Numbered from the stretch's first letter, positions 365-37,766 are shown. The stretch is 59,375 nucleotides of DNA from Cyanobacteriota bacterium (GCA_040752795.1 JBFMGH010000646.1:1-59375), one strand, 5' to 3'. Numbers and translations: made by a program. Notes: generated from the sequence alone by a model not told the origin.

Positions 365-766
365 ATGTCTCTAAAAAGGGACTCGAAAGGAACAAAATCA
401 ATAACTCAAAAAGCTAGCCTTATATCAGGTAGAAAAAATTCCGCTAATGACGATGTTTTATTTCTTTTAAAAGCTTTAAACACTACGGATCACCAATTAT
501 GTGTTGATATTGAGAATGATTTGGTTAAAATTGGTAAAAAGGCTATTAATCAACTAATAGAAGCTTTAGAAAATACTAACAATAAAGTAAGGAGCCATGC
601 TGCAATGGCTCTTATCAGAATTGGATCGGATTCTATCGAGCCTTTAGTTTCTGTATATAAAAATAAATCTAGTGAACGCTGGATGGCCGACTTTATTATT
701 TCAGAAATAGTATGCTCAAAAGAATTATTGGTTACTAATAGTTATTATGAATCAATGGCTAGCTAA
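365..766 (+). CDS. HEAT-repeat (PBS-lyase HEAT-like) protein
   Basis: 133-aa ORF. LIEALENTNNKVRSHAAMALIRIGSDSIEPLV is a typical HEAT-like repeat (xxVRxxAAxALGxIG pattern). Confidence 0.6.
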   Translation: MSLKRDSKGTKSITQKASLISGRKNSANDDVLFLLKALNTTDHQLCVDIENDLVKIGKKAINQLIEALENTNNKVRSHAAMALIRIGSDSIEPLVSVYKNKSSERWMADFIISEIVCSKELLVTNSYYESMAS

Positions 767-950: not shown

Positions 951-3899
951 TTAGTCACCCAGTTTTGTCAATCCTCGTTTAGGATCAAGAAGTCTTCTTC
1001 CAAAATCCTGAAACTGAATTGAACAAAGCTTTTTGTCTCCAGTTGTAATTATACGGTTAATAATTCCAATTCCGTAACGTTCATGATGAACACGATCGCC
1101 TTCCTGAAAATCAATATCTTCTGCACCTAAGTTAGGAGAAGCATACACAGGTATGTCTTCTAATTGATCTGGTATGGATTCAGGTCTTATGCGAGCATGT
1201 GACTGTGAGGCTGATTTGTGCATGGGGTATGGTTCTGGCTGTTGCTGTTGTTTATTATAAGGTGTTTGTGGTTGCATTTGTTGTGGCATGAACTCATCAT
1301 CAGGGATGTGATGGACAATAGATTCCTGATAATGCTTTTTTTGCTGCTGTTGGGGCTGGGGCCTTCTTTGTTGCTGGTTCATAAACTCATCATCAGAAAG
1401 ATGGTGTGTCATATGATCTTGAGAATGTTGTGGCATCTGTTGTGGCTGACGTTGCTGAGGCTGTTGTGGCATCCTTTGTTGTTGCTGTTGAGGATGTGCT
1501 TGTTGTCTCATTTGTTGAGGCATAAATTCATCGTCAGGAATATGATGAGCTATAGATTCTTGAGAATGCTGTTGCATTTGTTGCGGTTGACGTTGCTGAG
1601 GATGTTGAGGCATCCTTTGTTGTGCTGGAGGAGGCCCTTGTATTTGGATTTGTTGTGGCATGAATTCATCATCTGGAATATGATGGACAATAGATTCCTG
1701 ATAATGTTGTTGTGAAGTCTGCTGCCTTTGTTGAGGCTGTTGAGGCGTTCTCTGTTGCCCCTGAGGCGGCCTTTGCTGTTGGATTTGTTGTGGAATAAAT
1801 TCATCATCTGGAATATGATGGACAATAGATTCCTGATAATGTTGTTGTTGCCTTTGTTGTGGCATAAATTCGTCATCTGGAATATGATGGACTATGGATT
1901 CCTGATAATGTTGCTGTTGCTGCTGTGGTAGTGGCATTCTCTGTTGTTGATGCTGAGGAGGTTGCGGTTGTTGCATATGTTGTGGTATAAACTCTTCATC
2001 TGAAATATGATGGACTATGGATTCCTGATAATGTTGCTGAGAGGGTTGTTGTTGCCTTTGTTGTGGCATAAACTCATCATCAGGAATATGATGAGCCAGG
2101 GTCTCAGAATATTGTGTCTGAACTGGTTGTGGATGAATTTGTATATCAAAACCATCCAATTCATCATCATCTAAGGATGAATGTGTTGCCAGTAGCTCTT
2201 CTTCATACTCTTCAGAAATATTTTGATATTTTTCCATAAAGGACGATTGTTGCAGGGTTGAAGGTGCATATTGATCCAGGTCTAAAGATGTATATCCGGA
2301 GTAATCTTCGAAAGCTTCTTGCTCGGCTTGAGCTATAGTTTCGGGTATTTCAATTTCTCCCAGGCCCATCTGTTGATGAAATCCACCTTCTGCTATATCC
2401 ATTTTTTGATCAATTCCAGAACTATGAAGAGATTTATAAGAATATATTATCTCACCATATTCGGATACATATTTCTTAATTGACCCAAAATGTCTGCTTC
2501 TTAAAGAACTTAAATTACTGTCATGTAATTCAACCAGTATGGGATAACTGTTAGAAATATCTCCGTGAATAAGCACAGTATTTTCAGGTTGGCGTTTTAA
2601 GAGCATATTTAATAAAGTTTTATCTGCTTTAAGGTTGCTATAAAACTTATTGTTTCCATCAAGGTTGTCAGTAGAAAACATAAAAAGGTTTTCAGCTTGT
2701 TTAATTATTTCTACAGGTATTTCATCTTCATAGTTTGTTATGAATATGCTGTTTAAACCATGATTTTTTGTTTTATAAAGTAAATCAATAGCCATTTCTT
2801 GATCAATGTATTTGCTAATATCTTCATAGAAAACAAAAGCACATCCATCATAAGTGGATAAATCTTTTATAGAGCTATTTAAGAAAACTTTTTGCCAGAA
2901 TAGTGGTATATTAGAAATATCTAAAACTATCAACCCTCTGTTATTAAATGTTGTACCGATATCACAAAGTTCATCAGGCGTGTTGGCAAATATACCAAGC
3001 TTATTTATCGCTATAATTCTATTTCTGAGGGTTCCTAACTCAGGTATTCTTTTTTGACCTTCAGGTGTTTGCATTTCTTTTTCAAGGAGTTCTCTTAGCA
3101 AATTTAGAGGTAAAAACTCTTTAGTCATAGATAAAGCTCTGTTTGTTAGTTGAACATAGAGAGACTCTATCTTATGCTTTAGATTAGCTTCAATCTGTCC
3201 GGAAATTAATGCCCCTAAAGTTTGAATGCCATATTCAATAAGGGATAGCTTAAAGTTTTTACCGGCTTCAAGAACCTTGGCATCTTTTAAATTATGATAA
3301 GCTCCCTTTGGGTCTATAACAAGAACCTTAGCCTGTTTGTTGACCAGTTCGCTTTGAATTATGTTAAGTAAATTAGCTTTTTCTTTTGATCTGTCTCCTA
3401 CTATTAAGCTCGTTGTCTCTAATAAACTGGCTTCAGCAACCAGTGGAACTGTATAATGACTTACAAAATGACCTAAATTTATAGGGTTTAAGGGCGATGA
3501 CCCAATAGTATGAGAAATGATCTCTGTAGGAGGTACTACATCAACAAAATCTGCCATTGATGGAAGGTTGCCTCTCCAGTTAATCCACTTATTACCTATT
3601 ATAGAAAGTTTTATTTTCCCTGTGGCAACATGTAATGAATTAATATCATCTTCATAAGTGTTGCTGGAAATAGAGTTAAAATGAGCAATCTGTGATTTAA
3701 GTGCTTCATCTGTTACACTTGCAAAGTCTAAATTTTCTATCTGGTATATTTGTGCGACAATACCCTGTTTCTCTTCATCGACTATCTTTATACTATCTCC
3801 CGTGAAGAGCTTTTCCAATTTAGGATTAAAGATAATTTTTATTTTATCCCCTGATATTGAGCCAATTAGCATTGATGTAGATTGAATGTCGTAAGCCAT
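951..3899 (-). CDS. HerA/FtsK-like P-loop NTPase homolog with degenerate Walker A, a Q/P-rich tandem-repeat region and a PcrA/UvrD-type C-terminal Tudor-like domain
   Basis: 982-aa ORF. The N-terminal barrel-like segment is followed by SLIVGDRSKEKANLLNIIQSELVNKQAKVLVIDPKGAYHNL, which aligns to the HerA pattern h-I-G-x-T-G-S-G-K-S ... v-I-D-P-h-G-E-Y. FVFYED is Walker-B-like. The C-terminus GDRVHHERYGIGIINRIITTGDKKLCSIQFQDFGRRLLDPKRGLTKL matches the PcrA/UvrD CTD pattern GDRVxHxxFGxGxV...V.F...G.K.L. Confidence 0.75.
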   Translation of the reverse strand: MAYDIQSTSMLIGSISGDKIKIIFNPKLEKLFTGDSIKIVDEEKQGIVAQIYQIENLDFASVTDEALKSQIAHFNSISSNTYEDDINSLHVATGKIKLSIIGNKWINWRGNLPSMADFVDVVPPTEIISHTIGSSPLNPINLGHFVSHYTVPLVAEASLLETTSLIVGDRSKEKANLLNIIQSELVNKQAKVLVIDPKGAYHNLKDAKVLEAGKNFKLSLIEYGIQTLGALISGQIEANLKHKIESLYVQLTNRALSMTKEFLPLNLLRELLEKEMQTPEGQKRIPELGTLRNRIIAINKLGIFANTPDELCDIGTTFNNRGLIVLDISNIPLFWQKVFLNSSIKDLSTYDGCAFVFYEDISKYIDQEMAIDLLYKTKNHGLNSIFITNYEDEIPVEIIKQAENLFMFSTDNLDGNNKFYSNLKADKTLLNMLLKRQPENTVLIHGDISNSYPILVELHDSNLSSLRSRHFGSIKKYVSEYGEIIYSYKSLHSSGIDQKMDIAEGGFHQQMGLGEIEIPETIAQAEQEAFEDYSGYTSLDLDQYAPSTLQQSSFMEKYQNISEEYEEELLATHSSLDDDELDGFDIQIHPQPVQTQYSETLAHHIPDDEFMPQQRQQQPSQQHYQESIVHHISDEEFIPQHMQQPQPPQHQQQRMPLPQQQQQHYQESIVHHIPDDEFMPQQRQQQHYQESIVHHIPDDEFIPQQIQQQRPPQGQQRTPQQPQQRQQTSQQHYQESIVHHIPDDEFMPQQIQIQGPPPAQQRMPQHPQQRQPQQMQQHSQESIAHHIPDDEFMPQQMRQQAHPQQQQQRMPQQPQQRQPQQMPQHSQDHMTHHLSDDEFMNQQQRRPQPQQQQKKHYQESIVHHIPDDEFMPQQMQPQTPYNKQQQQPEPYPMHKSASQSHARIRPESIPDQLEDIPVYASPNLGAEDIDFQEGDRVHHERYGIGIINRIITTGDKKLCSIQFQDFGRRLLDPKRGLTKLGD
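1230..2115 (-). repeat. In-frame tandem repeat array (8 units) inside the 951..3899 CDS
   Basis: There are eight copies of H-[YS]-Q-E-S-I-[VA]-H-H-I-P-D-D-E-F-[MI]-P-Q-Q, separated by Q/P-rich spacers of variable length. The 51-nt stretch at 1663-1713 is identical to 1798-1848. Confidence 0.85.
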
Positions 3900-4311
3900 T
3901 TTATCCTATATATTTCCCTATCTAAAAAACTTATTAGTTTATTATAGTATGTAAATGCTTACAGGAACACTTTGTTACCTTTTTGAATGAAATACTTCAA
4001 AATATCCTCGAAAGTGTAGCATTAGTGTAGTAAAAAAGCTTTTATGTCCATAATTTTTTAATAAGTTATTTAATACTATTTTGATTATACCTGCCATTAT
4101 TTAGGAAAAAAAACTATTTTATAGTTATTTTTAAAAATGTTCTTTACAAGAAGTTTTATTAGTCTTTGTATAATTAGCCCTATTTTTGCTCTGGCAGGTG
4201 CATTTTTCGGTTTGCTAATTCGAGTTTTTATACTTTATTAATCTGTTTCCTATTTTATTGTTTATTAGTTAAACTATTCCATGAAAGTTTTAGTAGAGAT
4301 TTATTAAAACA

Positions 4312-5304
4312 ATGAAAAAATATTTACGCCTGATTGGAATATTGTTATTTGTAATTATTCTTACCAAGATAAATATAGCTGACGTTTGGCAGTCTCTTTT
4401 GCATGCTGATTGGTATATATTGTCATTTGCTGCTATGCTTAACCTTCTGGTTATAATCTTAAGATCTTTTAGATGGGTAAAATTATTAGAAATACAAAAC
4501 TATTCCTTTGGCTTTGCAGAATCTTTCTGGTCTTATTTGAGAAGTCTGTATTTTGGTAATATTACTCCGGCCAGAGTTGGGGAACTTTCAAGGGTTCATT
4601 ATGTTATGAAATATCTTAACATTAATTCAGCTGTAGCTACTTCAGGAGTAATTTTTGATAGAGTTCTTGACTCTTATTTTGTTTTAATTCTTGGTGTAAT
4701 AGGTATATTTTTTTCTGCTGTGTGGGGTCAATACATAAGTATTAAAGTATTCCTTGTTATATGTATGTTCTTGATCCCTATATTTTTGTTTGTACCTGAT
4801 GTAACGCTGACTCTTGCACGCTTTGTGCCTAATTATTGGAATATGAGAGAAAAATTTATTTCCTGGGCCAGGAATTTTTTTGATGCTATTAAATGCTTTT
4901 TAAACCTTAAAAGCACTGTTCCTGTTTTGCTGACAGTTATAATATATATTTTATTCTTTATACAATGTATATTATTAGCTGTTGCAATGAATTTACAGAT
5001 AGATATGTTTTACCTAATATTATGTGTTGTTGTTTTCTCGGCTTTGTCTATACTTCCTATATCTATTTCAAATATGGGAACCAGAGAATCAACCTTAATA
5101 TTTATGTTTTCTTATGTGGGTATTGTTTCTGAGCAGGCTATTACATATTCAATATTGTTTTTTCTAATTATAAACCTGTTTTTAGCTTTATTTGGCTGGT
5201 TAGCCTTTGTTTTTTATACTGATAAAGTTGATAAGCTAGATTCAGGTATAGGATCTGTAAAAAACTTGTGCAAAGAACATAGTGCCAATAAAATAAGTAA
5301 TTAG
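4312..5304 (+). CDS. Lysylphosphatidylglycerol-synthase-like transmembrane (flippase-like, UPF0104) protein
   Basis: 330-aa polytopic membrane ORF. The N-terminal pattern (TM, then LRSFRWVKLL, then ITPARVGELSRV) is typical of the LPG_synthase_TM family. Confidence 0.55.
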   Translation: MKKYLRLIGILLFVIILTKINIADVWQSLLHADWYILSFAAMLNLLVIILRSFRWVKLLEIQNYSFGFAESFWSYLRSLYFGNITPARVGELSRVHYVMKYLNINSAVATSGVIFDRVLDSYFVLILGVIGIFFSAVWGQYISIKVFLVICMFLIPIFLFVPDVTLTLARFVPNYWNMREKFISWARNFFDAIKCFLNLKSTVPVLLTVIIYILFFIQCILLAVAMNLQIDMFYLILCVVVFSALSILPISISNMGTRESTLIFMFSYVGIVSEQAITYSILFFLIINLFLALFGWLAFVFYTDKVDKLDSGIGSVKNLCKEHSANKISN

Positions 5305-5561: not shown

Positions 5562-8500
5562 TTACCTTGTCCAGCGGAAGTTTTTGACTGAGGAAAGTTT
5601 GTAGATTTTACCTTGAAGTTCAACAGCAAATTTGCGTACTTTATCACTTTTTGGCCCTCCGAATCCCGGTATAAAACTTAATCCGGGTATAAAATCTAAT
5701 AAGCCCAATCGTTTTTTCTCTCTGCCTAAACCAGGTATAAAGCCCAGCCCTGGTATAAAGTCTGTCAGGGTATCAATATTGAGGTTGCCTAATGGGCCTA
5801 ATAGGCCCGACACATTTCTGGATAGATTGCCTTTAATATTAAGGTCAGCATCTTCTGTATAGATGTTATATTCTCCTGATATCTCTAAGCTCAGATTTTT
5901 ACCCCTTGTTATTAAGTTATCTGTGTGTAAAATACCTTCTTTTACATTAAAATCGCCTGTGAGTTGTTCAAATTTACCTGTATGCATGGGTACAATTGAG
6001 GCAATGATGTTATTAAGATTGAGACCTGTTACGCCTCCCCCTATAATATTGCTTGCTCTTAATAAGTGCTCCATAGTTCCTAATCTAGAAAAACTGCCAT
6101 CATTTATAATTAAGCTTGCCTGTCCTTCGGCGTTTGCTAAAATCTGATCATAGTTATTACCTCTGGAATTGAATACCACTGTAGTATATAGATCTCCAAA
6201 AATCTCGTTTGGTAAATCTAATAGCACTGTTGCAGCAGCATTAGCTTTTACCCCTGCAATTTGAAGCTGTGCACCAAGTGTATCTTCCAGTAGGTTTACG
6301 TATAAACTTCCTGTTGCTGAACCTCCTGCTGTATTTAGCTCTATGTTATTTAGCTGAAAAAGTCCATCAGAGCATAATGCTATGTTTCCACTCAGGTTAG
6401 AGGTAATTAGTTTGTCTATAATAGCGTCGTCTATTGATAGATATCCGTTTTTGATCATAATTGGCAGTGTATCAAATTCAACATCTTTAGTTTTCTCTGA
6501 AATGGAATCCAGAAGGTTTGTAAGGCTTAATGAAGGGCTGTGTATTTGCAGGTTGCTTAGTTCAATGGGGAATTTTTTGAAATTGTTTATATGAGTGCTT
6601 ATTTCAAATATAATTCCGTTAACATTTAAGTAAGCATCTTTAATATTAGCTTTTTCTCCCTCAATATCAATGTTAAAACTTATATCTTTGGTTTTGAAGA
6701 CAGGCAAACTAACTTTTAAGAAGTTAATAAAACCATAAATATCAGGGTTAAAAGCTGTACCTGAGATAGTTAAGTCACTTTGAATTTTTCCTGTCAGATT
6801 ATCAGTAAGTAATCCTTTGGCTAGAAACTGATTTATTTCATCCAGGTTAATTTCGGGTATCTGAATTTTTAAATTATCAATTACTATAAAATCTTCCTCA
6901 GAATATTCTAAAAAACCATTAGCATTAAAAATACTATTTCCTACCTGAAAGAGGATTCTATCAATATCGATATATTTTGTGGTACCTTTGCCATCGACTA
7001 GTAATTTAATAGGAATATTTGCTGGTTTCTGAAACATTCCTTTTAGTTCTATTTTAGCATTTTCAGGTATGTTAGACTCGAATTGAATGTCCCAGTCTTT
7101 CATATTACCTTTTGCATGACCGTTAAAGTCTATTGGTTCAGAGAAAACGAGATTATTTTGCACTTCCTGGGTGTAAAATTCGTTAAAACTAAGGGGTGAT
7201 AGCTTTCCATTAATTTTTATATCAATGTAAGGATTGGGTTTTGTAAGATTCTTAAATCCACCATCTATTAAAATGTTGGAATCTCCATAGGCTATATTTA
7301 AGTTTTTAAGTGATATTAAATGGTTACTTAATTGAATGTGTCCTGAAATATCTTTGATAGGTTTATCTAACTGAATTGCTTGAATTGCAAAATCGTTTAA
7401 ATCAACGTTAATATCAAACTGTTCATTTTTTGTTTTTATATCCAGGCTTGCTTTTCCGGAGGTTCCCTTGATGCTTGTTATGAGTTCTTTAAGGCCTTTA
7501 GGGGCAAATGGATGCGAGCTTACATTTTTCATCAGGTCATAAGTAATATTTTTGCTTTTTGCTTCAAAAGCATAGTTAGGATTAAGATTTGCTAAATCTT
7601 CCATGCTACCTGATATAACGAAAGTTGAACCACTGGTTAAGACGGTTAAATCTCTTATTTTAATATTCTGATTTGCGAGTTCAATTATGCCTTTTTCTAC
7701 TGCAATATCGTCATGAAGCAAAGGGTGTATAACATGGGTTTTCTCAAGGTTGATATGTGCTGAAGGTATAATGTTATTGTTTTTCAATACAAGACCTATG
7801 TTACCATTTACTTTTCCGGAGAATTTTGCGGTTTCTACAAACTCTTTTTCCTCAGGTGTAAATATATTTAACTTTAAAGCAAGTGTTTTGATGTCTTTAA
7901 GGTTAAATCCTGGTAAATCAACTTTTATTTCTCCTTGTCCGTCTAAAGAACCTACACCTGATATTTTGATTGAGTTGTTAGCTATTGTTGCATTTAAATT
8001 GTTTAAGTTTATTAGTTTATTGAAGCTAATTTGACCGTTAATGTTTTCAACAGCGATTTTTGTTGAGTTATCAAGTATTTTAGCATTAGATAAAATTGCC
8101 TGGCCATATAGTTCAGGGTTTTCAATCGTGCCTTTTAAATTGATATCTGCCGTTGTAAAGCCTGTTAGTTGAAATTTTTCAAGCTCTTTGATAGAAATTC
8201 TCAGGTCTATTAGGGCTGCAAAAAGCATATCTTGAAGTTGATTTAATCGAAGTTTTTCTGAAAATATATTTATTCCTTTAAATTTTTGATCATGAAAATC
8301 ATAAATGCCTTTGATGCTTATATTGCTGTTATTGCCAAGAGATACATTAATATCTCTGGAATCTATATTAGCATTGTCAAAAGCAATATTGCCTTTAATT
8401 TCGTTTATAGGGTTATCGAATCCACGTAACACTATGTTGCTGGCGTTTATAAAAAGGTTGCCTTTGATGTCAGGCTTAAAGAAATCACCTAACAGATCCA

Positions 8501-10004
8501 CATTAAATTTAACGTGACCTTTCAGAGATGTTCTATCTAGGAATATAATTCTCTGGTCAAAGAAATCATCGGCAGTTGTCAATATTGATTTGATTTGTTG
8601 AAGGTCGAGAAGGGTTGAAGATATTTTTAAATGTTCAAATTCTCTTTTTAGAAAGTCAATATTACCGTTTATTTGTAACAGGTTAGTGCTTGTAAGCGGT
8701 ATAAGCCAATTTGTAGCTCTTGCTTTTGACCCATTGAATTTGATTGATCCGTTAATAGGGCTTATTACTATATCTGGTGACAGTGTAATTGAGTAATAAT
8801 ATAAATTTACATCACCATAAAGTAGAGGTTTCTTTAGAGAACCTTTTATTTCTAGATTAACTTTTGTTTTACCTTTTATTTTGCATTCATTTATTTTGTC
8901 TATAAAAAGTTTCGTTTCTGGTAAATAGGGTATAAGTGAATAGAACCTGTCTATATTGAAGTTATTGGAGTTTACTTTAAGATCAAAATTGGGGTTATCT
9001 TTTTGCCATTTGTCTATTCTTCCTTCTGCTTCAATAGGAACGTTGTTGATATCTGACTTTAGTTTATAAAGGTCTATTTTATTATTGGCTATATTTGTTT
9101 TTAGTTCCAGGTTTCCATTTTTAGCGTTTATTTTTAGCTCTGGAAATATTAGAGGCTCTTTTACGTTTAGTTTATTAAATATTTCCAGCCTTTTATTTTT
9201 AATTTTAAAGTTGAATTCGGTATCAAATTTCCCTTTTAAGTCTTTGTATGTCAGGTATGGTACAAATGTTTCAAGGTTCAGATTTTGAAGATAGCCTTTT
9301 AAGTAGAATCCATTGGAGAAGAGGTCTTTCTTGACTGGTATACTTATGTAGGTATCAAGGTCATATATTGTTTCGTTATTGAGTATACCTTTTAATTGAA
9401 CTTTAAGCTTTTTGTTTTCAGTGTAATTAGTGATCTTTATATATTCTCCTTTAAGGTTTAGTTTGTATTGAGGAGATATAACTTTATCGATTACCTGAAT
9501 GGAATAGTTTTTTATGAAAGCCTTAGAGCCTCTAAACTTTATGAAATATTTATCTTCTGGAAGCGGTGGTTTAATAATATCTTCCAGATCAAGTTTTATT
9601 TCCTGTTCTCTAACGGTATAAAGTTTTAAATTATCAGCTTTTAAATTTTTAATAACAATATCTTTGAAAAGCAAAGGTAAAATAGCAAACTTACATTTTA
9701 TGTTATCTGCATAAAACAGGTGTTTCCCATCTTTATGTGTAGCTTTTATAGAGTCAACAGTAATAACAATGCCACCGGTAACAGGTAATTCAAGCCCTAG
9801 TTTACCAATTTCTACATTACCTTCTATCCTTCTGTCAAGTTGTGCAAGTTCAAGAATTTTATTTTTGTATTGATTAATGTTAATTAGAGGTGGTAAGACA
9901 AATGTATAGATAGAAAGTAGAACAGCAATACATATAGCTATAGTAACAATTTCTTTTTTTCTGGATTTAGCTAGGTCCAGTATATTTTCAGATTTTATTG
10001 ACAT
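5562..10004 (-). CDS. AsmA/TamB-like giant envelope protein (N-terminal anchor, long beta-rich body)
   Basis: 1480-aa ORF. It has an N-terminal TM anchor (IVTIAICIAVLLSIYTFVL), hundreds of residues of repetitive beta-strand-like N/K/I/G-rich sequence, and a C-terminal AsmA-like tail. Size and architecture match the AsmA/TamB family. Confidence 0.6.
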   Translation of the reverse strand: MSIKSENILDLAKSRKKEIVTIAICIAVLLSIYTFVLPPLININQYKNKILELAQLDRRIEGNVEIGKLGLELPVTGGIVITVDSIKATHKDGKHLFYADNIKCKFAILPLLFKDIVIKNLKADNLKLYTVREQEIKLDLEDIIKPPLPEDKYFIKFRGSKAFIKNYSIQVIDKVISPQYKLNLKGEYIKITNYTENKKLKVQLKGILNNETIYDLDTYISIPVKKDLFSNGFYLKGYLQNLNLETFVPYLTYKDLKGKFDTEFNFKIKNKRLEIFNKLNVKEPLIFPELKINAKNGNLELKTNIANNKIDLYKLKSDINNVPIEAEGRIDKWQKDNPNFDLKVNSNNFNIDRFYSLIPYLPETKLFIDKINECKIKGKTKVNLEIKGSLKKPLLYGDVNLYYYSITLSPDIVISPINGSIKFNGSKARATNWLIPLTSTNLLQINGNIDFLKREFEHLKISSTLLDLQQIKSILTTADDFFDQRIIFLDRTSLKGHVKFNVDLLGDFFKPDIKGNLFINASNIVLRGFDNPINEIKGNIAFDNANIDSRDINVSLGNNSNISIKGIYDFHDQKFKGINIFSEKLRLNQLQDMLFAALIDLRISIKELEKFQLTGFTTADINLKGTIENPELYGQAILSNAKILDNSTKIAVENINGQISFNKLINLNNLNATIANNSIKISGVGSLDGQGEIKVDLPGFNLKDIKTLALKLNIFTPEEKEFVETAKFSGKVNGNIGLVLKNNNIIPSAHINLEKTHVIHPLLHDDIAVEKGIIELANQNIKIRDLTVLTSGSTFVISGSMEDLANLNPNYAFEAKSKNITYDLMKNVSSHPFAPKGLKELITSIKGTSGKASLDIKTKNEQFDINVDLNDFAIQAIQLDKPIKDISGHIQLSNHLISLKNLNIAYGDSNILIDGGFKNLTKPNPYIDIKINGKLSPLSFNEFYTQEVQNNLVFSEPIDFNGHAKGNMKDWDIQFESNIPENAKIELKGMFQKPANIPIKLLVDGKGTTKYIDIDRILFQVGNSIFNANGFLEYSEEDFIVIDNLKIQIPEINLDEINQFLAKGLLTDNLTGKIQSDLTISGTAFNPDIYGFINFLKVSLPVFKTKDISFNIDIEGEKANIKDAYLNVNGIIFEISTHINNFKKFPIELSNLQIHSPSLSLTNLLDSISEKTKDVEFDTLPIMIKNGYLSIDDAIIDKLITSNLSGNIALCSDGLFQLNNIELNTAGGSATGSLYVNLLEDTLGAQLQIAGVKANAAATVLLDLPNEIFGDLYTTVVFNSRGNNYDQILANAEGQASLIINDGSFSRLGTMEHLLRASNIIGGGVTGLNLNNIIASIVPMHTGKFEQLTGDFNVKEGILHTDNLITRGKNLSLEISGEYNIYTEDADLNIKGNLSRNVSGLLGPLGNLNIDTLTDFIPGLGFIPGLGREKKRLGLLDFIPGLSFIPGFGGPKSDKVRKFAVELQGKIYKLSSVKNFRWTR

Positions 10005-33920: not shown

Positions 33921-36900
33921 CTACAGGGCAATAGTAAGTTTGATTTGAACAGTGTTTGAAGAGGTGGTAGACCCTGGTAAAAATTTCCCGGAAAAGCTCT
34001 TCCTGACTGCATTTAGGATGAGGTTGTCAACCCTTGAAGAACCACTTGAAGAAACAAGTGTCGATATAATGGAATTTGTAGAATTGTTAATTTTTACTGA
34101 TATTACAGTTGATCGAAGCTCTCCAGAGATTTGACTGCTCTTAAGTTCAGAATTGATAGCCGTTTTAGCTTTTTGAGTTGAAGAGCTAATAAATGTTTTT
34201 AGTTCTTTATCTATGATAGAAGAGTCAGCTGGTTTCCAGAAAACATTTGCCGATGTAATATATTGAATTGCTGCAATTTCTTTATCTTGAGGGTTGAAGC
34301 CCATTTTAATTGACTCTTCTTTTTCTTCCAGACCTGATAACACTGGATTAGAAGGAGCACTTGCCCTTGCTATATCTGCACTGGCAAGTTCATTTTGTTT
34401 GAAATCGTCGCTTGCACTATAACCAGCCTTAACAAAACCTTCACCTTCTTTTGAATTTTCAGGTAAGAAGCTTTCACCTTTTTGATTCTCTCTGGCAATA
34501 GTTTTTTTTGTTTGAAGAATCACAGGCTCTTTAACTTCTGGTTGTGCTGGTAATGCTTCGTCAGCCAGGCTGGCTAGAAGCTTTTGATCTTTATCAGATT
34601 TTTCTAATTTTCCCTGTGCTCTTGAAACTTTGCTTATAGATTGTGGTTTTGCAGGTGGTGCGTTAACAGGTTGAGCCTTGCTTTTTTTAGTTATTGTTGG
34701 TTGATCAGATTCTACTTTAGTAGAAGCTATAATATCAGCTGGCATTTGCTTATTTTGCTCCAGTCTTGCCCTGTCTGTAGCTGCTTCTGAGGGGGCTTTG
34801 TTGTCTTTATTAGCTATATGAAGTTTTTCTTCTGTTGCAGTCTGGGTATTTGTTACTTCATTTAGCAGTGTAGTATCCTGAGATGGTGCCTGGGCAAGTT
34901 TATCACCAGTTGATGCTTCCGGTTCTTCTTGAGTTGCCTCTCCAGTAGTGGTTTGTTCTGTTGGTTGTGTGGTTGAGGCAGGCACTTGTTGCTGGTTAGC
35001 AGTTTCTTTTGCTAGAGGGTTTTTAAAATCTATTTTTGGCAAAGAAGCAACAAGCTTATCTGAAAAGCCACCAAATTTTGGTGCTATTACAATTACACCT
35101 GCTATAACACCACCTATGAGTAATAGTGATGCTGTAAGTAAGAAGAACTTTTTAACTCCACCTTTTTTTGCTTTTTTTCGGGCTTTTTTAGCATCAGCTT
35201 TTGTTGTATCAACAAATTCTTGAAGTTGTGCAATATCTTGATCAGTAGGTATAGAACTATCCATAGATTGATCTACTGGAGCATACTGCCCCTGATATAT
35301 TTCATGGCTAAATTGATCTATTTGATCATCGAAATCAGGAGGTGAAATATAAGTTGATTCTTCCATTGCTGCCTGAGAAGTGAAGCCAGATTGTTCTGCA
35401 AATGTTATATTATCTCCATAAGAAGAATCGTCCATTGGTGGTAGGGTAATTTCGTCTTCATAGTCATCTTCTTCATAGTCATCTTCTTCACTTATTTCAT
35501 CAAGTGTAGATGCAGCACCAAAAACATCTTCAGCTGTTGGGGGTGTTTCAAACATTCCTTCCATCTCAGAAGAAATGTTAAATAAGTCTGCGGACTGAGT
35601 ATCTTCTTCTGGTTCATCTTGTCGGGAAATATTTTCGGTTCCTTTTATGAAAGAATCAAAGTCTGAGAAGTCGTCAGCCTTAGAATCTTCTGCTGGTTGA
35701 ATATGTTGTAGGGGTGTACTTAAATCTTCTATATTGAAAGAAGCAATTGAGCCGAATTCTTTTTCAAGGTCTTCCAGTGTGGCGTCTTCAGAAGCCTGTT
35801 GTGCAGCAAATGTTTCTATATCATCAGTATGGTAGTCGTCATAACTACTTATGTATTCAAAATCACTTGTATCAGGCAATGACAGTTCTGAAGGTTCTTT
35901 GTCTGGGATCGTTAAAGAATCATCTCCACTGGCTGTTTCTGTAGTGCCTGCAATAATAGTAGGGTCTTGAAGGTTAAAAGAGTCTTCCATTGATTCAAGA
36001 TCAATGTCACTTACTAATGTATCAAAGTGCTCTTCTTCCAAGCTTTCCAGTGTTAAACTGCCTTCGTGTTCAGGGTAATCAGTCAATGAATCATCTGAAT
36101 GATATTCTTCTTCATCATAAGTTTGAGCTTCAACACCTGCTGCGTTTAATTTAGCATTTATATAATCTTCAGCTGCCTGTGCTTCTGCTAATAAACGTTC
36201 TTCTTCAGACATTTCATCTAATTCTTGAGGCTCTATATATTCAGGTTCTTCAGATTCAAATACTGGAGATATATCAGGTTGTGAGAGTATTTCTTCAGAT
36301 ATTCCCACATCAGGGAGGGTATCAGGCGTTGTATCCATGATAGGTTCCTGGATCATTTCAGATATTGTAAACTCTTCAGCTTCTTCTTCTGAAGTTTCAG
36401 GGGCTGCAAAGCTTTCATGCCATATATCTCCTTCGGTAGGGTATTGTTGCCATAAAGCCTCATCATCTGATGCAAAAACATCTGATACAGAAGGCCCTGA
36501 TTCTCCAAAAGCATCTTCAGTAAAGACAGTATCTGGTGTGCTATAGGAAGCTTCCCATGCAGAGGTAGGTGTATCGGTTATGAAGGATTCTTCAGGTTGA
36601 ATATCAACTTCCTGGCCTGTCTCAATAATTCCAGGAGTAAATTCTTCAATCTGACTACGAAAGGGTTCACTCTCTACTTTTGCCTCCTGTACAAACTGTT
36701 CGATCTCTTCTATGTCTTGTTGTATAAATCCTTGTGTTTCTGTATCTTCAAGTTTGTCTGATTCTATTTCAATAGAAGTTCCTTCTTCTCTTGCTATAAT
36801 TTCATCCAGGCTTAGCTCTTTAATTTCTTCTTTCGCTATAGATTTTATTGCTTCAATAGTTTCAGATTTTGGAGCTGTTTTAGCAGCATATGGTATATCT

Positions 36901-37766
36901 TCTTTAAACTTTTGAATTGTTTCTTCTATTTCCTCGAATTCTTCATCCTCTTCGAATTCTTCAATATCTTCTTCAGGTATATATTCTTCATCATAAGAAT
37001 CTGTTTGAGTAGGAGTTACGAAAGCTTCTTCAATAGGTATGCTTCCGTCCAGATATATCATTGGCTCTTTTGGAGCTTTAATTTTTCGATCAAATAAGTG
37101 TAAGTAAAGTAGCGTTTCTCTACAATTTTCACAGTGTTGCATGTGGTTACGGAAAAAATTCAATTCTTTAGTGGTCAGAGAATTATCTAGAAAGCCTGTG
37201 AATAGTTCCTGAACTACGTCATGATCTTCTTCAGTGAATTTATCTAAGTCTTTTTTAGCTTTAGATATGGGTATAATAGCACTTGCTAGTTCTAATGGAG
37301 ATCTTAGAATGCTTCCATCGAATACATAGTAGTTTATTTTATCAGAGCTAGTTCCTATAGCATCTTTTATATCATCATAGGATACCCATCCAACTATTTC
37401 GGCTCTATCTTTGTTGGTATCCAGTGATATAGCAACGTAGAAATCAAATACATAACCAAATTCATATGGTTTTTTAGGTATCCAGAGTTGAGAATATTTT
37501 GTATTTACTATAGTTCTTGCATCTATATTAGCTTTTCCAATTTTAATATCTGCGATGTCGAAGCCTTCTGATAAGAAGAAATTGTCGCAGTAAGCTTCTC
37601 CCTCATCTATTTTAAGCCCCTGTTCTGAAAGAAAATCTTTTAATGTTAATGTTGCCAGTGTACTAACAAAAACCCTTTTTCTTATGCTTGAGCTTGTAAA
37701 GAATAAGCATTTCTGCCTAGCCTGTTTTTTGTGAGAGAGTCGTATCCTTTTAGTAGCAGATGGCAC
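33921..37766 (-). CDS. Giant anti-sigma-like protein: N-terminal domain, zf-HC2 (HX3CX2C), hyper-acidic linker, one TM, P/Q/T-rich linker and a TonB-C-like domain
   Basis: 1281-aa ORF. FLDNSLTTKELNFFRNHMQHCENCRETL is the anti-sigma zinc-finger signature (37122-37145). The single TM is KKFFLLTASLLLIGGVIAGVIVIAP (about 35078-35150). The C-terminus STVISVKINNSTNSIISTLVSSSGSSRVDNLILNAVRKSFSGKFLP fits the TonB_C pattern. It lies immediately upstream of the sigma gene. Confidence 0.6.
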   Translation of the reverse strand: MPSATKRIRLSHKKQARQKCLFFTSSSIRKRVFVSTLATLTLKDFLSEQGLKIDEGEAYCDNFFLSEGFDIADIKIGKANIDARTIVNTKYSQLWIPKKPYEFGYVFDFYVAISLDTNKDRAEIVGWVSYDDIKDAIGTSSDKINYYVFDGSILRSPLELASAIIPISKAKKDLDKFTEEDHDVVQELFTGFLDNSLTTKELNFFRNHMQHCENCRETLLYLHLFDRKIKAPKEPMIYLDGSIPIEEAFVTPTQTDSYDEEYIPEEDIEEFEEDEEFEEIEETIQKFKEDIPYAAKTAPKSETIEAIKSIAKEEIKELSLDEIIAREEGTSIEIESDKLEDTETQGFIQQDIEEIEQFVQEAKVESEPFRSQIEEFTPGIIETGQEVDIQPEESFITDTPTSAWEASYSTPDTVFTEDAFGESGPSVSDVFASDDEALWQQYPTEGDIWHESFAAPETSEEEAEEFTISEMIQEPIMDTTPDTLPDVGISEEILSQPDISPVFESEEPEYIEPQELDEMSEEERLLAEAQAAEDYINAKLNAAGVEAQTYDEEEYHSDDSLTDYPEHEGSLTLESLEEEHFDTLVSDIDLESMEDSFNLQDPTIIAGTTETASGDDSLTIPDKEPSELSLPDTSDFEYISSYDDYHTDDIETFAAQQASEDATLEDLEKEFGSIASFNIEDLSTPLQHIQPAEDSKADDFSDFDSFIKGTENISRQDEPEEDTQSADLFNISSEMEGMFETPPTAEDVFGAASTLDEISEEDDYEEDDYEDEITLPPMDDSSYGDNITFAEQSGFTSQAAMEESTYISPPDFDDQIDQFSHEIYQGQYAPVDQSMDSSIPTDQDIAQLQEFVDTTKADAKKARKKAKKGGVKKFFLLTASLLLIGGVIAGVIVIAPKFGGFSDKLVASLPKIDFKNPLAKETANQQQVPASTTQPTEQTTTGEATQEEPEASTGDKLAQAPSQDTTLLNEVTNTQTATEEKLHIANKDNKAPSEAATDRARLEQNKQMPADIIASTKVESDQPTITKKSKAQPVNAPPAKPQSISKVSRAQGKLEKSDKDQKLLASLADEALPAQPEVKEPVILQTKKTIARENQKGESFLPENSKEGEGFVKAGYSASDDFKQNELASADIARASAPSNPVLSGLEEKEESIKMGFNPQDKEIAAIQYITSANVFWKPADSSIIDKELKTFISSSTQKAKTAINSELKSSQISGELRSTVISVKINNSTNSIISTLVSSSGSSRVDNLILNAVRKSFSGKFLPGSTTSSNTVQIKLTIAL

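Follow-up and report, generated by a model that had tools for sequence, protein, structure and literature searches.

What is the job of a protein that joins a HerA-like domain with eroded catalytic motifs to the tail of a DNA repair helicase? The question is raised by one gene in a 59,375-nucleotide stretch of DNA from Cyanobacteriota bacterium (GCA_040752795.1 JBFMGH010000646.1:1-59375; hereafter the window). The gene is an intact, single open reading frame (ORF) of 982 amino acids (aa) with an ATG start, located at 951..3899 on the minus strand, to which the coordinates of all its parts given below also refer. An earlier note on this DNA, made from the sequence alone, had read it as a HerA/DUF87 protein with degenerate motifs, a repeat array and a PcrA/UvrD-type Tudor-like tail, and translation of the window placed all of these features where the note had put them. 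The ORF list and orthologues at 46–65% identity with like architecture describe a HerA-fold pseudo-ATPase followed by a disordered linker and a C-terminal Tudor domain. We put at about even the chance that the protein acts as a non-catalytic, multivalent adaptor for RNA polymerase (RNAP) and/or UvrB.

The N-terminal ~490 residues adopt, as modelled, the HerA fold, consisting of a barrel, a RecA-like core and a helical insertion. Pfam places DUF87 (PF01935, "Helicase HerA, central domain") at residues 174–332 with 24.9 bits (cutoff 23.2), starting directly after the P-loop, and the relative P0010 reaches 33.8 bits. When an AlphaFold2 (AF2) model of residues 1–489 was compared with the PDB using Foldseek, the ~40 top matches were all HerA chains (E 5.6e-14 to ~1e-7), in alignments of 445–560 columns that span nearly the full length. 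Among them were archaeal HerA-NurA, S. solfataricus HerA, Sir2-HerA, DUF4297-HerA, TdpAB and D. radiodurans HerA, followed in the ranking by DndH, VirB4, Cag-beta and TrwB. Because Foldseek returns about 40 consecutive HerA chains, the assignment proposed by eye is sound at the level of the fold. It needed Pfam and structure comparison, since a profile of the N-terminal part built from eight close sequences found no credible match among PDB sequences, only spurious lipocalin matches. Both Pfam and Foldseek show that the Tudor domain is not attached to a superfamily 1 (SF1) helicase core. Within the model, an N-terminal beta-rich, HAS-barrel-like domain (residues 1–125; 3525..3899) has strands at residues 10–56 and 90–122, ends in W-x-x-W-x-G-N-L-P and contains G110 and P113, which are kept in active and tailed relatives alike. 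The RecA-like P-loop-fold core (residues ~160–460; 2520..3422) is predicted with a local distance difference test score (pLDDT) of 85–93 over residues ~170–370. The helical insertion (residues 217–305; 2985..3251) is delimited by AF2 helices at 220–301 (pLDDT ~90) and by differential conservation.

The loss of catalytic motifs was judged against relatives. With the N-terminal profile as query, an exhaustive HMMER search across 1.84 billion representatives returned 347 proteins at E<=1e-3, 219 of them at E<=1e-10; the 154 sequences examined comprise 150 listed of the 347 matches, earlier matches and the query. In this set, 39 untailed proteins of ~450–520 aa keep a canonical Walker A (GxKGSGKSH) and Walker B (hhFFEEAH). 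A profile alignment places the Walker A of the window protein, GDRSKEKA (residues 168–175; 3375..3398), in the columns of the GxKGSGKS of these 39 active relatives. It still has the first Gly and the Lys, but no longer the other two Gly or the Ser. The corresponding D-x-N-x-E-Y reads DPKGAY (residues 196–201, PKGAY being 197–201; 3297..3314), and the remnant of Walker B is FVFYED (residues 355–360; 2820..2837). These are the substitutions that the earlier note had reported for both the P-loop and the PKGAY motif.

The same erosion is found across the tailed proteins. A canonical GxxGxGK[ST] is absent from the window protein and from 92/92 tailed relatives examined, and in all 92 both Walker A and Walker B are degenerate (for example, CDKQEQRIN with FLIFEAR, or QSDRNDKTQ with YLFLSLND). 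All close relatives have a P-loop of the form G[DN]xxx[EDN]Kx, and their Walker B is F[VI]FY[ED]D except in the most divergent one (FIIFNE). Many positions with at least 75% conservation in the active group are unconserved in the 83 distant tailed proteins: the entire Walker A, K179, N198 and E200 of D-x-N-x-E-Y, E359, E360, A361, T375-R376-x-R378-H379, T388, N389 and R400. Compared with the 39 active relatives, the window clade has lost G171, G173, S175, H176, K179, N198, E200, R376, R378 and H379. Its Walker B acidic pair (FVFYED) is kept, whereas distant tailed relatives have lost it, and the alignments mark this clade as intermediate in motif loss between the active and the distant tailed proteins. 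Conservation restricted to the tailed family clusters instead in the helical insertion, at K217-L218-P219, F262-x-P264-F265, L288-x-L290-L291-x-N293 and A305, with the motifs KLP, F-x-P-F, L-x-L-L-x-N-K-L and G-I-F-A. No orthologue with an intact Walker A was found. Judged by these alignments, catalytic erosion is ancient and family-wide, and ATP-driven translocation by the window protein is unlikely.

The other end of the protein points to transcription or repair. The last 49 residues ahead of the final three, FQEGDRVHHERYGIGIINRIITTGDKKLCSIQFQDFGRRLLDPKRGLTK, form a predicted UvrD/PcrA-type Tudor domain (residues 931–979; 963..1109). Within the whole protein two Pfam families stay below threshold (CarD_TRCF_RID at 21.1 against 23 and PcrA_UvrD_tudor at 17.4 against 23.9). 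When the tail is scanned alone, CarD_TRCF_RID (PF02559) scores 27.1 bits, over its cutoff of 23, and PcrA_UvrD_tudor (PF21196) scores 23.1 bits against 23.9. Across the family the signal is stronger, with 27/30 diverse tails matching both Pfam families at E<=0.01 (best PcrA_UvrD_tudor value 1.3e-8). A profile of the 30 tails searched against the PDB retrieved the Tudor domain of M. smegmatis UvrD1 at 5.4e-9, M. tuberculosis UvrD1 at 1.5e-6, the C-terminal domain (CTD) of E. coli UvrD at 3.5e-6, D. radiodurans UvrD at 5e-5 and the PcrA CTD at 0.008. The AF2 model of the tail has five strands at a pLDDT of ~90. Its top Foldseek matches are 9dqs, 7egs_B (the UvrD CTD on the RNAP lobe), 6yi2 and 5dma; for 9dqs, 7egs_B and 5dma the target-normalised template modelling (TM) score is 0.83–0.85 with a root-mean-square deviation (rmsd) of 1.8–2.2 Å, and for the nuclear magnetic resonance model 6yi2 the values are 0.61 and 4.0 Å. 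Mfd and CarD ranked lower structurally than UvrD/PcrA.

The residues that make this domain a binding module are also conserved. Sanders et al. reported that H681A, W684A, K712A and L714A each abolish binding of the PcrA CTD to RNAP, K708 being the E. coli equivalent (PMC5397179); K727/K708 are likewise treated in PMC8318588. In a HMMER alignment to the E. coli UvrD CTD, H939, Y942, R969 and L971 of the window protein fall at the positions of PcrA H681, W684, K712 and L714. Among the 30 diverse tails H939 is invariant and Y942, R969 and L971 are each at least 90% conserved; the mean identity of family tails is 60–74%. By sequence and model, the tail is a UvrD/PcrA-type Tudor domain with its RNAP/UvrB-contact surface residues intact, which upholds the Tudor-like C-terminus first suggested for this gene. 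The ligand of such domains was defined by Urrutia-Irazabal et al. as a beta-hairpin motif, [VIL]-D-x-x-T-G-E-[VIL]-[VILT], present in RpoB and UvrB (PMC8318588).

The fusion is real, and it is no single oddity, as this C-terminal tail is present in 92/154 sequences examined. Seven close relatives, at 46–65% identity, came from a word-indexed search, one of them named as a Vampirovibrionia metagenome-assembled genome (MAG); all have a variable linker, and in all six complete ones the tail is nearly invariant. At least 91 further clusters at 50% identity share the architecture, which is for that reason far beyond chance. In a rough neighbour-joining tree the tailed proteins fall in one clade with no active member inside and with the window's clade at its base; the same clade also takes in nine tail-less proteins with degenerate motifs, known partial sequences among them. 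Because all tailed proteins group together, the tree fits a single event of fusion and inactivation followed by divergence.

Degenerate motifs alone could also be produced by a decaying pseudogene or by misassembly of a normal HerA gene. We regard this as extremely improbable here, given that the 982-aa frame is intact, that independently assembled orthologues have conserved the degenerate motifs too, and that the tail shows high conservation. Both recent decay and a sequencing artefact are excluded by the conserved degenerate motifs, the intact ORF and the tailed clade of the tree. Read together with the recurrence of the architecture and the newly conserved positions of the helical insertion, these features indicate selection and not decay.

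As far as sources are named, almost all family members come from Vampirovibrionia/Melainabacteria, and within this one class its inheritance looks vertical. This taxonomic span is drawn from a few named records only: Vampirovibrionia, Candidatus Melainabacteria, Gastranaerophilales, Caenarcanum, "Cyanobacteriota bacterium" and two MAGs labelled Gammaproteobacteria. A genome scan with narrow patterns gave seven loci, which is a lower bound. The two exceptional records are L007 (CAZFBA010000031.1) and L012 (CAYZIV010000013.1), GTDB MAG records that encode family members under the label 'uncultured Gammaproteobacteria bacterium'. Since the L007 protein is identical to P0001 and its synteny is that of the Vampirovibrionia loci, these labels look mis-assigned. 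A separate observation concerns P0039 (617 aa), an untailed protein with intact Walker motifs, which carries DnaX_C (Pol III tau C-terminal) in place of the Tudor domain. This hints at a HerA subgroup that has repeatedly gained C-terminal adaptor domains for replication or transcription machines.

Fold and tail are connected by a long low-complexity linker (residues 490–930, 441 aa; 1110..2432), defined by composition and unconserved in length and sequence among orthologues. In the window protein, the segment from YSYK (residue 489) to F931 is 25% Q and 11% P, and is predicted from its composition to be disordered. It contains a repeat array (1269..2129) of eight units of approximately HYQESIVHHIPDDEFMPQQ separated by Q/P-rich spacers. 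The eight copies of H[HQ][IL][PS]D[DE]EF[MI][PN]Q lie at residues 603–873, each after ~HYQESIV, and at the DNA level tandem repeats with periods of 135, 69 and 81 were detected at 1420–2130. The repeat-bearing part measures ~287 aa, in agreement with the ~290-aa region described before; the array is, however, specific to a sub-clade, the family linker being acidic and disordered. Specifically, the linkers of 90 tailed proteins have a median of 234 aa and contain 31% D/E but 4.6% K/R, and the Q/P-rich exceptions are the window protein, P0001, which has five similar repeat units, and P0008. Opposite the array (1218–1931, plus strand) run two long antisense ORFs with much L, W and H (165 and 67 aa); they were rejected as genes, being by-products of CAG/CAA-rich repeats.

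Acidic micro-motifs around aromatic residues far exceed the expectation from composition in the window protein (z=3.5) and in all three Q/P-rich proteins, the window protein included (z = 3.5–4.8). Family-wide, 1033 acidic-flanked aromatics were observed against 877 expected, with a median z of 0.9, and the excess is clear only in the window sub-clade. Different acidic-aromatic units are repeated in other clades, for example EFQDESVLDY and EFSDDDLxxFMDYDE. Given the modest excess, the idea of a family-wide acidic-aromatic linear motif was dropped, and only [DN][IL]P[VI][YF] is claimed. This short motif occurs 12–20 residues ahead of the Tudor domain in most members. In the window protein it reads EDIPVY (residues 914–919; 1143..1160), 12 residues ahead of the domain. 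The orthologue and family tail alignments show I-P-x-Y to be invariant in close orthologues, and P and Y are each present in at least 80% of the 92 tails.

How such a protein might act can be outlined from its parts. A catalytically dead FtsK-HerA-type P-loop ATPase would have been turned into a structural adaptor. By analogy with all characterised HerA proteins the scaffold is probably hexameric, in which case the ring would present some six Tudor domains at the ends of flexible arms. These would each dock on the beta-hairpin 'TGE' helicase-interaction motif of RNAP beta and possibly also of UvrB. The ring itself may bind a second ligand through its family-specific helical insertion, either DNA or, in relatives, a protein of about 155 aa described below. 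Further contacts, by nucleic-acid mimicry or through peptide motifs, may come from the acidic linker (31% D/E in the family) or, in the window protein, from the acidic-aromatic repeats. Taken as a whole, the protein would be a multivalent tether with no enzymatic role, one that clusters or anchors transcription or repair complexes, or that competes with UvrD/PcrA for them. A bolder version is speculative and in our estimate rather unlikely: a lineage-specific transcription-organising hub, in which a dead HerA hexamer sits on or around DNA and six Tudor-tipped arms gather RNAPs, or RNAP and UvrB. The further idea that this hub would form a multivalent assembly or condensate, to which the eight acidic-aromatic motifs of the sub-clade add valency, we hold to be just as doubtful.

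Several points weigh against the adaptor reading. The first is the incomplete loss of the active site, as the window clade keeps G168, K174, E359/D360, T388/N389 and D426, with K174 invariant across nine close sequences. Because K174 and the acidic residues E359 and D360 are kept, residual nucleotide binding is possible, though unlikely, in this clade. A rival reading takes the protein for an NTPase or nucleotide sensor that still works despite its deviant P-loop, acting as a slow DNA translocase recruited to RNAP. In its favour are the residues just listed and orthologues that retain K[ST] (GDKAKEKT, GDKEKEKS). We nevertheless think this unlikely. All close orthologues have E, D or N in place of the Gly ahead of the Lys, so that a side chain, often negatively charged, sits in the phosphate-binding loop. 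Further, N198, E200, R376, R378 and H379 of active relatives are replaced. The remaining tailed family lacks a recognisable Walker A or B while its architecture is unchanged, and the function shared by the family cannot for this reason depend on hydrolysis. The second point is that the N-terminal model is of moderate quality (mean pLDDT 64, with residues 123–161 and 403–489 below 50), so that the ring interface is putative. Third, docking on RNAP is extrapolated from the conservation of residues.

Lastly, the partner of the tail is ambiguous, because the UvrD/PcrA Tudor domain recognises one and the same motif in RNAP, in UvrB and in other proteins, UvrB and RNAP being in competition (PMC8318588). 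The tail could thus be aimed at UvrB, at the ~155-aa protein or at the protein's own acidic-aromatic linker, and not at RNAP, with a repair role or a self-assembled network as the outcome. This is a possible explanation, if a somewhat unlikely one. Where UvrB is concerned, a uvrB gene lies at L016:7419-9404, two genes downstream of the distant family member P0158, and encodes a protein with the sequence IDPVSGEIL, which comes close to the 'helicase interaction motif' published as the one bound by PcrA/UvrD Tudor domains. UvrB with IDPVSGEIL is thus a possible Tudor ligand in this lineage. However, the adjacency was seen in 1/16 loci only and may be coincidence.

The other two candidate targets are short peptides. 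The HHIPDDEF repeats, EDIPVY and the C-terminus EDxDF[SY][LM] of the ~155-aa protein share an acidic-aromatic character and could be bound by a basic Tudor surface. The known ligand, by contrast, is a structured beta-hairpin with TGE rather than a linear peptide, and acidic-aromatic enrichment beyond composition is significant only in the window sub-clade. The ~155-aa protein is the product of a conserved 152–155-aa gene found 27–165 bp upstream of the family gene, on the same strand, in 6/12 distinct informative loci (L001:7368-7835, L005:6252-6719, L009:3156-3614, L010:2962-3423, L012:288-749 and L013:3814-4275), distant Gastranaerophilales members included. It has an invariant W-K-G-x-T-K-H-x-G-P-I in addition to its acidic-aromatic C-terminus, and no match in Pfam, among PDB sequences or in PADLOC. 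Against a role as the general partner of the tail stands its absence from half of the loci. By tblastn it is missing from the window, both from the 412-bp spacer at 3900–4311 and from the whole 59 kb, nor does it precede the family gene in L014, which among named Vampirovibrionia genomes is the closest. The claim that the gene is monocistronic and without a partner accordingly holds for the window but not for the six relative loci that carry this gene.

The surroundings bear on yet another explanation, namely that the protein is an anti-phage defence component derived from HerA-based systems (Sir2-HerA, DUF4297-HerA, MADS), with the ~155-aa protein as effector. The closest active relatives do match the PADLOC HerA and mad8 models, the best structural matches include defence HerA complexes, and a small uncharacterised partner lies upstream in half of the loci. 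We still consider a defence role very unlikely. PADLOC gave zero matches for the window protein and for the product of the 155-aa upstream gene; the family looks vertically inherited within one class; and the ATPase activity that drives known HerA defence systems appears, from the motifs, to be lost. No nuclease or effector partner (NurA, Sir2, DUF4297 etc.) adjoins the gene in the window, where the two flanking genes have the opposite orientation, and neither NurA nor Sir2 was found as a partner in those loci of relatives whose genes carry Pfam annotation.

What does surround the gene is conserved. The convergent downstream gene encodes a 133-aa HEAT-repeat protein (365–766, plus strand) and is kept in L001, L002, L004, L005 and L007. 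Upstream, also on the opposite strand, lies a gene for an LPG_synthase_TM-like membrane protein (4312–5304, plus strand), and beyond it one for an AsmA/TamB/YhdP-like protein of 1480 aa (5562–10004, minus strand), identified by synteny with Pfam-annotated orthologues. This order of HEAT, LPG_synthase-like and AsmA-like genes is kept in L001–L005, L007 and L014. The setting is chromosomal housekeeping and not defence.

Each half of the protein has well-studied counterparts. With the HerA translocases (HerA-NurA, Sir2-HerA, DUF4297-HerA, TdpAB) it shares the N-terminal barrel, the RecA-like core with its helical insertion, and DUF87. In contrast to them, it has lost the Walker A glycines and Ser, the D-x-N-x-E-Y motif and the Arg/His cluster, has added a long disordered linker and a Tudor domain, has no nuclease or Sir2 partner, and resides in a housekeeping context instead of a defence or repair operon. 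With the Tudor domains of PcrA, UvrD and UvrD1 (5dma, 7egs, 6yi2, 9dqs) it shares a five-stranded fold at the extreme C-terminus behind a flexible linker, profile-detectable similarity, and the His, aromatic, basic and Leu residues of RNAP binding. Here the Tudor domain is carried by a dead HerA-fold ring instead of an SF1 helicase, the critical Lys is Arg in the window protein, the linker runs to hundreds of residues, and multiple Tudor copies would be present if the ring is hexameric.

Two other groups of RNAP-binding proteins are comparable. The N-terminal domain of CarD/CdnL and the RNAP-interacting domain (RID) of Mfd (TRCF) are likewise Tudor-like RNAP-binding modules, and the isolated tail exceeds the CarD_TRCF_RID cutoff, but it scores better against UvrD/PcrA in both sequence and structure. 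CarD and Mfd bind the beta1 lobe by beta-sheet augmentation and not through the TGE hairpin (PMC5397179, PMC8318588). With its acidic tether the family also resembles a factor of different origin; its fold is unrelated to that factor, which has no ring domain, and the linker of the window protein is Q/P-rich. The factor in question is the RNAP delta subunit (RpoE) of Firmicutes, in which an RNAP-binding globular domain is followed by a long, strongly acidic disordered segment.

Full-text literature searches found, within the library covered, no description of a DUF87/HerA protein with a Tudor domain, or of an FtsK-HerA pseudoenzyme of such architecture, in keeping with the earlier note, whose author was aware of none. 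What is new is the domain combination, the systematic catalytic loss and the restriction to one lineage; both domains are individually well known. To our knowledge, every HerA-type ring described so far is a DNA translocase driven by ATP, at work either in end resection in archaea or in one of several anti-phage systems of bacteria. If the adaptor reading is true, the family would be the first pseudoenzyme branch of HerA and a new type of RNAP- or UvrB-associated factor, and the known uses and partners of the bacterial Tudor 'helicase interaction' module would be extended past SF1 helicases. The hub version, if true, would give an FtsK-HerA protein a role not assigned to any before, a ring motor having become a scaffold. 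Vampirovibrionia are the non-photosynthetic sister lineage of cyanobacteria, and their molecular biology is, as far as we know, almost unexplored. The family offers a testable handle on Vampirovibrionia-specific organisation of transcription and repair.

The rest of the window adds little to the function of the gene. No RNAP genes are present among its large ORFs, which instead include DnaE, a GH38 enzyme, a DUF1822 protein and a CheA-like kinase; a 2-oxoacid:ferredoxin oxidoreductase (POR) and a GGDEF regulator are also encoded. An Rfam scan of the window gave no matches. Around the gene, a promoter scan returned fewer promoter-like sites than in shuffles, and terminator-like matches fall inside the repeats. 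The DUF1822 protein is a 1281-aa ORF at 33921–37766 (minus strand) whose only Pfam match covers residues 11–159, the remaining ~1100 residues being unannotated. Finally, the C-terminal region of the AsmA/TamB/YhdP-like protein contains a repeated peptide, FIPGLGFIPGLG...DFIPGLSFIPGFGG.

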